A DNA stretch of 44,747 nt from Escherichia coli (GTDB taxonomy: Bacteria; Pseudomonadota; Gammaproteobacteria; Enterobacterales; Enterobacteriaceae), in the NCBI GenBank assembly GCA_029912145.1, contig GCA_029912145.1_4350.1. One strand, written 5' to 3'. The notes below the pieces were generated by a model. It worked only from the letters and a program-made list of their open reading frames with translations. It did not search any database and was not told the origin of the DNA. Below are positions 2,850 to 5,911 of the stretch, one piece after another; within the stretch, counting starts at the first letter, position 1, and every line of letters begins with the position of its first letter. The position numbers were made by a program, and so were the translations under genes.

Positions 2850-4270
2850 TTCTTACCTCGTCTCTTCATGTAATTAAGCAACTCTTCCTGTACCGATTTC
2901 TTCTCGTCAGTACGTGTGGCAACAACCTCGTCCAGCGTGTCTTTAGCGACGATGTGATAGAGGAACACCGGTCGCTCGTGCCCCGCTTGTTTCTGGCGGA
3001 CCGGGCCTATACGCTCAACAACCTGCAAATAGTGCTCAAGGTTCCAGCCTTGCGAGATGAACGCCAGATGATGACCCCCGTCCTGTAAATTCAAACCATG
3101 CCCGGCTGACGCAGGATGCACGCATAAAATCTCGATTTCCCCACGGTTCCACGCTTCCATCTGCTTATTACCCTTCGCACCTTTGGCAAATGCCTGGGCC
3201 TGCGGGAATCGCTTAAGGATGCGCTCCAGTTCGTGCTTGAACTGATAGGCCACCAGTAACGGCGCGCCCTGTAACTCTTCCACAATGGACTCCAGTGCGT
3301 CCAGTTTCGTGTCGTGCACTTTCTCCCAGTCTTTGGTTGCTTCGCCGTCAGGGCCCGAAACATACACGGCACCGGAGGCAATCTGCAGACACTTCGACGT
3401 CTTCGCCGCAGCGTTAGCCGCTTCAACTTCTCCGCTTTCCAGTTCCGCGAATAGCTTCTCCTCCATATCGATGTACGCCTGACGTGCTTTCTTCGGCAGG
3501 TCGATTTCAACCGGCACGATAACAGGCGCTTCACAACCGAACCACTCGGCGGCGTCAATCGTCAGACTGATGTCCTTCATCTTCTGGTGAATCTCGTTAT
3601 CTGCACCAGGGCGGGCGTGATATTCACGTGCCATCGCAGATTTTCCTTTCTGTACCGAATTAAACCAGCGGTCGGTGAATGCTGTATACGACGAACCTAG
3701 GCGCTCGCCAGCGTCGATAAACCAGTTCTGGCCCCACAAATCCTTGAGGCCGTTTGGTGACGGTGTACCAGTCAGGTTAATAAAACGCTTAACCCTTCCG
3801 AAAGCCACTTTACTAAGCGCCTTTGCACGCTTGCTACCACCTGAACGGCTGCGGAATGATTTAAGCTTCGTGCTTTCATCTGCAACGATAACCGTAAAAG
3901 GCCAGTCGTCTTTGCCGTAGTAGTCAATCAGCCACTCGATAACCTCATAGTTCGTGCAAACCACGTTAGCATCTGACTCCAGCGCCGCGATGCGGCGCTT
4001 CTCTGAACCAGTCGCATCTACAACACGCAGACATGGGAATTGCCATTTCTCTTGCTCTGCAGGCCACGTACCAGACGCAACCCGCAGCGGGGCGAGGATT
4101 AACACGCGGTCGTCATCATTAAGTTGGCCGTTTCGGAACAGTCGGTTTAATGCCCACAGTACGCTGCCAGTCTTCCCAGCGCCCATGCTTGCCCATATGT
4201 TGCAGCGATGATGCCGCAGCATGAACGAAGTCATGAGCTTTTGGTACTCACGCCTTTGAAACTTACTCAT
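2846..4270 (-). CDS. Superfamily-2 DNA helicase (SNF2/DEAD-like)
   Basis: Walker A GAGKTGS, DExx-like VADEST, motif III LTGTP, C-terminal helicase domain; 4 bp overlap with the upstream gene. Confidence 0.85.
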   Translation of the reverse strand: MSKFQRREYQKLMTSFMLRHHRCNIWASMGAGKTGSVLWALNRLFRNGQLNDDDRVLILAPLRVASGTWPAEQEKWQFPCLRVVDATGSEKRRIAALESDANVVCTNYEVIEWLIDYYGKDDWPFTVIVADESTKLKSFRSRSGGSKRAKALSKVAFGRVKRFINLTGTPSPNGLKDLWGQNWFIDAGERLGSSYTAFTDRWFNSVQKGKSAMAREYHARPGADNEIHQKMKDISLTIDAAEWFGCEAPVIVPVEIDLPKKARQAYIDMEEKLFAELESGEVEAANAAAKTSKCLQIASGAVYVSGPDGEATKDWEKVHDTKLDALESIVEELQGAPLLVAYQFKHELERILKRFPQAQAFAKGAKGNKQMEAWNRGEIEILCVHPASAGHGLNLQDGGHHLAFISQGWNLEHYLQVVERIGPVRQKQAGHERPVFLYHIVAKDTLDEVVATRTDEKKSVQEELLNYMKRRGKK

Positions 4271-5192
4271 TTACCGCCCCCATGAATGCCTTTATAAATT
4301 CAGCAGCTACTTGCGGGACGATGGCATTGCCGTAACCGCGCAATCGTCCCACTCTGGCGGGTATCCCATCAGCCAGCGGGAATGTGCCGGGTTCAACTGG
4401 CCTGAATTTTCCATCCCGGCATCCGAGCCAGTCTGCCTCTGACCAGAAGCCGTGATGCGGATTGGTCGCGATATTTTCAGTCCCTGCTCCGTTGAGTAGT
4501 CCAGCCTGTCGAAAGTCCGGTCCTTTCCGTCCTTGCGAATCACTGTCTCTCCGCTCCCTCTGTAATCGTTCGCGGTCGGCGTCGCCCATGCCGTCATCGC
4601 GGCGGCCCACCCCAGTTTGTTCGGTTTCGTCCTGCCGTCTGTGCTGCGCATGTTCACGTCGTTTGTTATCAGTGATACTGCTGGCGTGGGCCAATCTATG
4701 CGCGCCGAAGAAAAGTCGGTCGCGTTTGTGCGGTGCGCCGACGCTACAAGCTGGGAGTACGGCAAACCCGACGGCGTAGTTTTCTCCTTCCAGGTGAGTT
4801 TGTAAATCGCACATCCACGATTTTGCAATTGCTGGCGCAACCTGCTCCCCAAAGAGGACTGGAGGGCGGCACTCGCTGATGAGGTCGAGGAACACAGGTG
4901 CGAGGTGTCTCGGGTCGAACTGTCCGAGTTGCTTTCCCGCTGCGCTAAACGGTTGGCAAGGCGGGCTTCCCGTCCAGAGAGGCGCATCTTCCGGAACTCC
5001 CGCAAGTCTGAGCGCGAGAGGCCAGCCGCCGATACCAGCGAAAAAATGACACTGGGTGAATCCGTCGAGGTCTTCTGGCTTAACTTCAGTAATGCTTCTT
5101 TCATCTACAACTCCAAAAGGTATGTGACCCTGTTTTATTAATTCACGCAGCCACGCGGCTGCGCCTTTATCCCATTCGTTGTAATAGTTCAT
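4263..5192 (-). CDS. DNA (cytosine-5)-methyltransferase
   Basis: Motif I FFAGIGGW, motif IV catalytic SPPCQPFS, motif VI-like FGEQV, C-terminal motif X-like GNAIVPQV; low-complexity Arg/Asp-rich linker before motif X. Confidence 0.8.
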   Translation of the reverse strand: MNYYNEWDKGAAAWLRELIKQGHIPFGVVDERSITEVKPEDLDGFTQCHFFAGIGGWPLALRLAGVPEDAPLWTGSPPCQPFSAAGKQLGQFDPRHLAPVFLDLISECRPPVLFGEQVAPAIAKSWMCDLQTHLEGENYAVGFAVLPACSVGAPHKRDRLFFGAHRLAHASSITDNKRREHAQHRRQDETEQTGVGRRDDGMGDADRERLQRERRDSDSQGRKGPDFRQAGLLNGAGTENIATNPHHGFWSEADWLGCRDGKFRPVEPGTFPLADGIPARVGRLRGYGNAIVPQVAAEFIKAFMGAVNE

Positions 5193-5380
5193 TTTGCCAC
5201 CAGAACTAACTCTTTACGCCCGAACGCCGTAACGTTACCGGTTACATCTTCGATAACCAGTTTACCGTTCGACTCGACGTACACCGTATCAACGGCAACA
5301 GGCCGACGGGTCTTAACGTTGAAAATCATGTCGCCAGGTACGATGTCACGTGCTGGTTTGCGGTCATATTCGTGTTTCAT
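5189..5380 (-). CDS. Hypothetical protein (63 aa)
   Basis: ORF translationally coupled (4 bp overlap) to the methyltransferase gene; a promoter-like motif lies just upstream. Confidence 0.5.
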   Translation of the reverse strand: MKHEYDRKPARDIVPGDMIFNVKTRRPVAVDTVYVESNGKLVIEDVTGNVTAFGRKELVLVAK

Positions 5381-5410
5381 TTCTCAATTCCTTATATTGT
5401 TGGTGTAGGA

Positions 5411-5734
5411 CTAACTATAATAGTTCGCTATTAGGGCGTCAACCTGTTTAAACGAACCAACGACAAAAACATTAGCACCACGCTTACGCATCCGCTCGTG
5501 CTCCCGTAACTGGTGTGGATCCGGCTTCGTGCTTTCGTCTTTCTTTATCTCGACGAACCAGATGACGCCGCCGGGGAGAATTACCAGCAGGTCAGGGGCG
5601 CCGGAACGTCCTTCGTAGGAAAGTTTACGAACGAGGCCACCAATGGCCTCGAATCGGTCTTTTGCGTATTTCTGTATTTTGCCCTCAGGCGTACTCATCC
5701 ACACACCCCTCACGTTTCGTATGCGCAATACCAC
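5411..5734 (-). CDS. VRR-NUC domain nuclease (PD-(D/E)XK fold)
   Basis: PDLLV...VEIK core motif characteristic of VRR-NUC; sits beside the DNA polymerase gene. Confidence 0.8.
   Translation of the reverse strand: MVLRIRNVRGVWMSTPEGKIQKYAKDRFEAIGGLVRKLSYEGRSGAPDLLVILPGGVIWFVEIKKDESTKPDPHQLREHERMRKRGANVFVVGSFKQVDALIANYYS
5414..5442 (-). promoter_or_regulatory. Sigma70-like promoter, leftward: -35 TTGACG, 17 bp spacer, -10 TATAGT, with the dyad AATAG-N4-CTATT inside the spacer
   Basis: Motif read directly; it overlaps the last codons of the VRR-NUC gene; same architecture as the sites near 9.2 kb and 12.1 kb. Confidence 0.5.
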
Positions 5735-5779
5735 AGCGCGGACAGATCCGGCGGTCTTCTTCGTAGAACCAGTAAATTT

Positions 5780-5911
5780 TCATTCCAGCACCCACAGATA
5801 AATTGTTACTAACATACCTAATACGGCAACCATCATGCCGTATTGACCCTCGTGACAGTAGACACCGGCGGCGAATCCCGCCAGTACCGCAATAATCAGT
5901 TTACTTGGCAT
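5780..5911 (-). CDS. Possible small hydrophobic peptide (about 43 aa, MPSKLIIAVLAGFAAGVYCH...), overlapping the end of the polymerase gene; not in the ORF track
   Basis: ATG-initiated hydrophobic ORF in the gap between polymerase and VRR-NUC genes; no further support. Confidence 0.25.
   Translation of the reverse strand: MPSKLIIAVLAGFAAGVYCHEGQYGMMVAVLGMLVTIYLWVLE

Follow-up and report, generated by a model that had tools for sequence, protein, structure and literature searches.

How does a cytosine methyltransferase select its target when the chain with its catalytic motifs carries only low-complexity sequence at the place of the target-recognition domain (TRD)? The window analysed here, a 44,747-nucleotide (nt) stretch of the Escherichia coli assembly GCA_029912145.1 (contig GCA_029912145.1_4350.1), raises this question through a minus-strand gene at positions 4263 to 5192. 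Positions 3800 to 5800 of the window are 100% identical to Escherichia phage VB_EcoS-Golestan (Kagunavirus, Guernseyvirinae). A sequence-only reading of the window had described the gene product as an orphan C5-methyltransferase of 309 amino acids (aa) with an unusual or minimal specificity domain. A second open reading frame (ORF), at 4307..5104 inside the same gene, was missed in that reading. We use alpha for the 309-aa product of frame A and beta for the product of the nested +1 frame (frame B). The locus is probably an EcoHK31I-like orphan DNA C5-cytosine methyltransferase with two frames and two subunits.

The catalytic chain and what it lacks

By its motifs, alpha belongs to the DNA C5-cytosine methyltransferases. 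Motif I (FxGxG), the Pro-Cys of motif IV, motif VI and motif VIII are all present. The order along the chain is II/III-like, I, IV, VI and VIII, followed by a filler and then by a C-terminal hairpin and motif X, as listed below.

4263..5192, minus strand: alpha gene (frame A), 309 aa, predicted catalytic subunit, corresponding to Golestan gp34 'DNA methyltransferase'
5169..5186, minus strand: motif II-like YYNEWD, upstream of motif I (permuted order)
5022..5045, minus strand: motif I FFAGIGGW, aa 50-57, from the HhaI alignment
4944..4964, minus strand: motif IV PPCQPFS, aa 77-83, with catalytic Cys79, from the Pfam and HhaI alignments
4839..4853, minus strand: motif VI FGEQV, aa 114-118, from the HhaI alignment
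4716..4736, minus strand: motif VIII APHKRDR, aa 153-159, from the HhaI alignment
4452..4700, minus strand: filler, aa 165-247, an R/D/E/G-rich low-complexity stretch
4293..4334, minus strand: motif X YGNAIVPQVAAEFI, aa 287-300, inside which the beta stop codon (4307..4309) falls

The earlier description of the 309-aa ORF as carrying C5-methyltransferase motifs is borne out by this motif map and by profile and pairwise alignments. The Pfam family PF00145 matches alpha at aa 68-186 only (62.6 bits, cutoff 22), with the match stopping by profile position 182, and PHROG 363 'DNA methyltransferase' covers alpha over its full length (E 8e-89). The NCBIfam model TIGR00675 (dcm) scores 42.6 bits on alpha, under its curated cutoff of 100.65. 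With an M.HhaI query sequence that had been checked against the PDB, phmmer aligned alpha aa 35-65 with motif I of M.HhaI (HhaI 2-32) and aa 67-168 with HhaI 70-174. Within motif X, GNAIVPQ (aa 288-294) is invariant or nearly so in homologues; its assignment is a pattern match only, and no hidden Markov model aligns it.

A TRD and motif IX were not found between motifs VIII and X within alpha's own chain, and frame A is without motif IX. The Arg/Asp/Glu-rich low-complexity stretch that had been noticed at the TRD position is real, with R (14), D (9), G (9) and E (6) making up 38 of the 81 residues at aa 165-245. Its interpretation as an unusual or minimal specificity domain is not supported, because the linker is unalignable between homologues and evolves as a by-product of the other frame. 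A minimal TRD also fails as an explanation because the conserved sequence and the motif IX-like element of that DNA lie in the +1 frame. From these two observations it follows that the specificity part is most likely a separate nested polypeptide. The filler is most likely the shadow of a second conserved gene rather than a shrunken TRD.

The N-terminus of alpha has a feature of its own. At aa 3-57 (5022..5186, minus strand), a II/III-like segment (YYNEWDKGAAAWL...VDERSITEV) precedes motif I FFAGIGGW. TIGR00675 pairs alpha aa 3-184 with profile positions 25-178, and phmmer pairs aa 3-13 with HhaI 37-47. A relative from Bacillus (L158:2282-3046) has the canonical motif order I-II-III-IV. From these alignments, the alpha N-terminus looks like a non-circular permutation of the part that binds S-adenosylmethionine (AdoMet).

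The +1 frame is open throughout the family

About 130 homologues keep the +1 frame open; they come from phages, from prophages of many bacterial phyla and from an AT-rich Bacillus element. In N15 gp58, BcepC6B gp33, RcMcDreamy gp22, Klebsiella phage Soft gp37 and K1G, it is open for 230-355 aa, compared with 41-85 aa for the +2 frame. Among IMG/VR homologues with 43-100% alpha identity, the +1 ORF of 57 out of 59 spans a median 89% of the gene (284 aa versus 61 aa in +2). When alpha codons in this set were shuffled synonymously, the +1 ORF averaged about 120 aa and almost never reached the observed length.

Bacterial genomes, taken as one genome per species, contain at least 539 loci of this kind in Proteobacteria, Acidobacteriota, Verrucomicrobiota, Nitrospira, Bacteroidota, Lentisphaerae, Bdellovibrionales and a lineage of the candidate phyla radiation. 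We examined 80 of these loci and located alpha in 69, every one of which has a long +1 ORF (median 301 aa versus 85 aa in +2). The IX-like string L.P.[FHW]..W[LM][MLQ] occurs in the +1 frame of 62 of the 69.

The most telling case is a relative from a Bacillus plasmid-prophage, because its gene GC content of 0.43 makes off-frame stops frequent. Its +1 ORF nevertheless extends for 171 aa, compared with 28 aa in the +2 frame and 38-58 aa in neighbouring genes, and none of 2000 shuffles reached this length (maximum 122). The product encoded by this ORF includes LLTWKVSVTP..., FPTPTASDTRG and NPVFWEEMMGFPTGWTE.

Searches that start from beta lead back to the same genes. All 244 phage matches found by tblastn with beta lie under cytosine-methylase genes, including those of a cyanophage, an Erythrobacter phage, a Vequintavirus and epsilon15, and beta has matches in at least 8,600 clusters at 50% identity. 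No unsplit relative, with beta-like sequence in the catalytic frame, was present among the 244 phage matches, the 80 bacterial loci and the plasmid matches. These comparisons show that the two-frame arrangement holds in all relatives tested.

Several loci depart from the usual layout or annotation. In cyanophage Cy-LDV1 (g54, L074:1090-1644) and Erythrobacter phage R6L (gp55, L075:1291-1674), the gene annotated 'methyltransferase' is a beta-frame fragment only, and the overlapping full alpha ORF (about 416-425 aa from stop to stop) is unannotated. In the IMG/VR contigs L022 and L035, the alpha frame ends at 82 aa, apparently by frameshift, which may point to natural alpha-null alleles or to errors of assembly. 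Alpha lies within a longer open frame in L031 and L032 (480 aa) and in L104, L106 and L134 (601-823 aa, stop-to-stop); such frames may represent fusions with neighbouring genes or long stop-free leaders.

Selection acts on both frames in separate zones

The zonal selection analysis used 49 distinct phage homologues. Alpha aligns across the set at aa 1-160 and 250-300, where it is conserved, but hardly at all at aa 165-245, which is indel-rich. Its synonymous rate is 0.5-0.58 over aa 1-90, drops to 0.25-0.33 over aa 106-150 and 0.29-0.34 over aa 241-285, and is back to about 0.47 just past the beta stop codon. Across the first 75 codons of beta, the most variable position is beta position 2, which is the wobble position of alpha. 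Because variability peaks there, alpha alone is judged to be under selection at the 5ˊ end. At beta aa 136-210, the third position of beta itself is the most variable and the beta synonymous rate is normal (0.41-0.58). On this pattern, beta alone is under selection in the middle of the gene and both frames are constrained in two flanking zones. The constraint on both frames in the flanks accounts for the high DNA identity of the last ~190 nt of the gene, which reaches 75-82% among phages of Burkholderia, Rhodobacter, Vibrio, Xanthomonas and Ralstonia.

All 97 of 97 distinct genes are free of frame-A stops in the filler, where synonymous reshuffling of beta leads one to expect about two per gene (median P of none 0.11). 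Since frame A is kept stop-free here, translation of alpha must cross the filler before it arrives at motif X. As judged from the aligned genes, the analysis shows both frames to be under purifying selection with the expected zonal pattern.

Parts and probable start sites of beta

Beta matches a separate PHROG 'DNA methyltransferase' family, phrog_1008 (E 2e-59). Its conserved core begins at beta aa 76, is about 190 aa long, and consists of a helix, a hairpin, WxTPxxD(x)xG modules and a C-terminal block. The features of this frame are as follows.

4307..5104, minus strand: beta ORF (frame B, +1 relative to alpha), up to 265 aa plus stop, wholly inside the alpha gene
5111..5114, minus strand: Shine-Dalgarno-like GGAG, 6 nt upstream of the beta ATG
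5102..5104, minus strand: first in-frame beta ATG, built from alpha codons Asp30(GAT)-Glu31
4985..4987, minus strand: second possible beta start ATG (beta aa 40), preceded by GGGAG at a spacing of 9
4700..4879, minus strand: upstream dual-coding zone, with alpha VI-VIII in frame A and the beta core helix SASAALQSSLGSRLRQQL and hairpin YKLTWKEKTTPSG...ASAHRT in frame B, both conserved
4475..4699, minus strand: beta-only zone with two WxTPxxD modules, frame A being filler
4658..4693, minus strand: WxTPxxD module WPTPAVSLITND, beta frame
4550..4588, minus strand: WxTPxxD module WATPTANDYRGSG, beta frame
4310..4472, minus strand: downstream dual-coding zone, with the beta RITASG block and its motif IX-like element (4349..4399) in frame B and alpha GFWSEADWLGCRDGKFRPVEPGTFPLADGIPARVGRLRGYGNA in frame A

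Along the DNA, motif VIII (frame A), the modules (frame B), the IX-like element (frame B) and motif X (frame A) follow one another in the order of a single-chain enzyme. The only beta segment that phmmer and hhalign pair with M.HhaI is the IX-like element, and the pairing falls at motif IX of M.HhaI (KLHPRECARVMGYPDSYK, 270/273-290).

The WxTPxxD(x)xG modules vary in number, from 0 to 4 in the bacterial loci, with two in Golestan and one in K1G. Golestan and K1G (L002) are otherwise about 92% identical and differ by a 105-nt indel at window positions 4550..4693, which is exactly one 35-aa beta module and also alters the alpha filler by 35 aa. Because alpha lengths among Kagunavirus relatives vary from 264 to 347 aa (264, 274, 309, 314, 324 and 347 aa), this comparison suggests frequent module gain and loss.

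Possible start signals precede the core in most phage genes. An ATG with GGAG, AGGAG or AAGGAG at 6-8 nt lies 73-79 codons 5ˊ of the beta core in nearly all of the 49 phage homologues, and many of them have a second start at -16/-17. The first beta ATG requires that the invariant Asp30 of alpha be encoded by GAT, which is used at 62% there versus 40% elsewhere. The 73 codons upstream of the beta core have no +1 stops in 49 of 49 homologues, although with a per-sequence chance of about 0.5 this lends weak support.

Two relatives carry the beta frame beyond its usual end. In the prophage L159, whose alpha (2925-3914) has a nearly identical N-terminus, the beta frame is stop-free and runs into a Dam domain. 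The resulting 497-aa beta-Dam ORF (L159:3001-4494, P0147) contains a complete phage N6-adenine methyltransferase domain (TIGR01712, 147.6 bits). As proof of beta translation this ORF is ambiguous, as a GTG with an AGAGG Shine-Dalgarno sequence lies just 5ˊ of the Dam domain, where Dam might start independently. The other relative, P0145 (758 aa), combines a beta-like ORF with about 470 further residues that include a CQWCRFRDKC motif in the C-terminal part. Judged by eye, this part is possibly a PD-(D/E)XK/Cas4-like nuclease; P0145 had no match in NCBIfam.

A proposed two-subunit enzyme and its alternatives

We infer from these comparisons that beta is translated and assembles with alpha, that its modules serve in target recognition, and that the resulting enzyme is active and counters restriction. 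Alpha would supply the catalytic, AdoMet-binding large domain, continue through a disordered stretch of about 80 aa whose sole requirement would be to remain stop-free, and end in the conserved C-terminal hairpin and motif X. Beta would be initiated independently, either at the ATG at 5102-5104 with its GGAG Shine-Dalgarno sequence or at the ATG at 4985-4987. Its N-terminal helix-hairpin is probably the element that binds alpha, its WxTPxxD module or modules are probably the TRD, and it would provide the motif IX-like helix that alpha lacks. Assembled, the two chains would form the equivalent of an ordinary single-chain C5-methyltransferase and would methylate cytosines in phage DNA during replication.

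A number of observations weigh against this model. The AlphaFold2 model of the beta core, built from a 97-sequence multiple-sequence alignment, has a mean predicted local distance difference test score (pLDDT) of 66.5 and a predicted template modelling score of 0.30; only its N-terminal helix and hairpin are confident (pLDDT 77-94). A Foldseek search of the PDB with this model returned a best E of 0.33, which is meaningless, and the model of alpha, built from a shallow alignment, is unusable (pLDDT 39.5). A beta-family profile had no match among PDB sequences at E<=10, and beta itself had none in Pfam and NCBIfam; among 97 beta relatives compared with Pfam, one touches PF00145 (E 8.5e-4). When a repaired chain was built in silico from the alpha N-terminal part, the TRD and IX parts of beta and the alpha C-terminal part, PF00145 still matched only 70-186. 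The pairing of beta with motif IX of M.HhaI is not significant (hhalign E 0.16, phmmer domain score -2.2). Only 50 of 91 homologues have the ATG at alpha Asp30, so it is not universal and beta start sites are lineage-specific in this set. Moreover, M.EcoHK31I has its TRD described in alpha, whereas here the sole conserved sequence between VIII and X lies in beta, which is the reason a TRD is suggested in beta.

Under one alternative, the 309-aa protein needs no partner: it would be a complete, compact C5-methyltransferase whose TRD is minimal or unusual, and the +1 ORF would be irrelevant to activity. Alpha does have the catalytic and AdoMet-binding motifs, scores above the Pfam threshold, and is the only ORF annotated here in most database records. 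However, we regard this explanation as very unlikely, because the supposed TRD is unalignable and indel-rich and its substitutions follow frame B in phase, motif IX is missing from alpha, and the +1 frame is kept in all relatives, unlike what is expected of an irrelevant ORF. Another proposal, that the +1 ORF is a non-functional by-product of the amino-acid and codon composition of alpha, can appeal to the fairly long +1 ORFs (mean ~120 aa) that alpha shuffles already give in GC-rich genes. Yet the observed ORFs exceed the shuffled ones in nearly every gene, with 0 of 2000 in Bacillus. In addition, synonymous sites of alpha are suppressed in the overlap zones, the substitution phase in the middle is that of frame B, and the beta motifs are conserved across phyla whereas the alpha filler is not. 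This proposal is hardly credible. Sequencing frameshift errors were ruled out, since the pattern recurs in hundreds of independent genomes.

Less easily dismissed, though still unlikely, is the idea that beta is real and selected but serves some function apart from the methyltransferase, such as that of a DNA-binding regulator or an anti-defence factor. The lack of a significant match to any known domain and the mostly low-confidence structure model would fit such a protein. Its position would not, because all cases of beta that we examined lie within genes of this methyltransferase family, and because beta is colinear with the expected place of the TRD and motif IX between VIII and X and carries an IX-like motif, whereas alpha lacks exactly the TRD and motif IX. 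M.EcoHK31I also provides a precedent for a functional link. Another way to join the two frames, which lie on the same strand and mRNA, is a programmed +1 ribosomal frameshift from alpha to beta that yields a fusion protein in place of an independent beta start. The first ~75 codons of beta, not conserved as protein yet stop-free, would agree with this route. Against it stand the ATG and Shine-Dalgarno sequence conserved upstream of the beta core and the separately initiated beta of M.EcoHK31I (PMC2836561). Also, both frames are selected over about 60 codons of alpha VI-VIII, so that VI-VIII would be missing from a fusion that includes the beta core, and a return shift would be required to reach motif X. 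No conserved slippery site was noticed, although no dedicated search for one was made. On balance, a fusion made in this way is highly improbable, and a double frameshift to a single chain was ruled out, as two shifts would be required and the dual-coding zones speak against it.

Genomic neighbourhood

Upstream of alpha lie a 63-aa ORF and genes for a VRR-NUC nuclease and a DNA polymerase, and downstream lie genes for a SNF2-type helicase and a primase. No restriction endonuclease was found among the neighbouring genes. The earlier view of an orphan methyltransferase in a replication module therefore holds, with the helicase, the 63-aa ORF, the VRR-NUC protein and the DNA polymerase as neighbours and no restriction enzyme. 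The 3ˊ end of the alpha gene, stop included, overlaps the helicase start by 8 nt (window 4263..4270), and the 3ˊ end of the 63-aa ORF overlaps the alpha start by 4 nt (window 5189..5192). Overlaps such as these two are typical of translationally coupled genes in one operon. Bacterial copies are flanked by prophage-like genes (integrase, Dam, exonuclease and primase). Plasmid homologues are phage-plasmid or prophage-like, and no adjacent restriction enzyme was identified among them. A putative role of the methyltransferase in protecting phage DNA from restriction is a reasonable reading of this context.

Comparison with known methyltransferases

M.EcoHK31I of E. coli, which recognizes YGGCCR, is a naturally heterodimeric C5-methyltransferase in which alpha carries motifs I-VIII and X together with the predicted TRD and beta carries motif IX (PMC2836561). 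Silent removal of the beta start codons within its alpha gene abolishes activity, beta supplied in trans restores it, and the first ~42 residues of beta are dispensable (PMC2836561). Our locus resembles this published architecture of M.EcoHK31I, the one enzyme for which such nesting has been established by experiment. In both, the beta ORF lies wholly inside the alpha gene on the same strand in another frame, an arrangement that is evolutionarily maintained here, and the large subunit is one continuous chain with motifs I-VIII and X, the X here being a pattern match. The beta N-terminus, dispensable in M.EcoHK31I, is poorly conserved here. The sizes are also similar, with M.EcoHK31I plasmids named M38 and C23 (presumably ~38 and 23 kDa) versus a 309-aa alpha and a 190-aa beta core. 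Unlike M.EcoHK31I, which is part of a restriction-modification system, the Golestan gene is an orphan in a phage replication module, and its N-terminus is permuted.

M.AquI and M.EcoHK31I are the only named exceptions among otherwise monomeric C5-methyltransferases (PMC3404938). Like the locus described here, M.AquI is a C5-methyltransferase of two polypeptides, split in the variable region (PMC3404938). However, its genes have no alternate-frame overlap and motif X is on its small subunit. An M.AquI-type arrangement was ruled out for our locus, since motif X is in the alpha frame and the genes are nested. Canonical single-chain enzymes (M.HhaI; PF00145; TIGR00675) share the catalytic motifs and the DNA order of VIII, recognition part, IX and X with this locus. 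Unlike them, the putative TRD and motif IX lie outside the frame of the catalytic chain, and in the Golestan lineage a II/III-like segment comes before motif I.

Two further comparisons concern phage biology. The multispecific orphan C5-methyltransferases of Bacillus phages SPR and phi3T are single chains with tandem TRDs that have been mapped experimentally. Our locus resembles them as a phage-borne orphan with variable tandem modules in the recognition region, with the WxTPxxD modules here being only candidates for TRDs. Overprinted viral genes usually encode an unrelated, young accessory protein. The present locus shares with them the predicted production of two proteins from one DNA stretch and the suppression of synonymous variation. 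Here, however, the two products look like components of a single ancient enzyme, and conservation of the pair extends over several bacterial phyla.

Implications

A literature search, which did not cover REBASE, revealed no prior description of a nested gene in phage methyltransferases. To our knowledge, few long overlapping gene pairs are established in prokaryotes. The alpha and beta frames overlap by about 800 nt on the same strand, are conserved from Bacillus to Proteobacteria to cyanophage, and seemingly yield two products of one enzyme. The nested two-frame kind of methyltransferase, supposedly rare, seems to occur widely in phages and prophages and to be under-annotated there, and our results suggest that the nested two-polypeptide form is common in phages.

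Most database records call one frame only, and two annotate only the beta fragment as a methyltransferase. Some Kagunavirus records carry both frames without explanation; those of K1G, the K1ind phages and fTaEco01 list a 'C-specific methylase' with an 'Mte8-like protein' or a 'DNA methyltransferase' twice. A codon-optimised synthetic alpha gene would silently destroy beta, probably resulting in an inactive enzyme, and this would lead both the assignment of specificities and the engineering of methylomes astray. In Kagunaviruses, which are candidates for phage therapy, DNA methylation would influence host range by letting the phage evade restriction.

A broader reading is possible, although we consider it doubtful. 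A TRD and motif IX nested in the +1 frame could be the standard design of a very large phage and prophage C5-methyltransferase clade that crosses phyla, with swappable modules and dual coding as a device for evolvability. If this is true, M.EcoHK31I would be no curiosity, and module gain and loss would be tolerated, since in the alpha frame this DNA encodes a disordered tether. Among the same-strand gene overlaps known in prokaryotes and their viruses, the two genes would then rank with the longest and the most broadly conserved.

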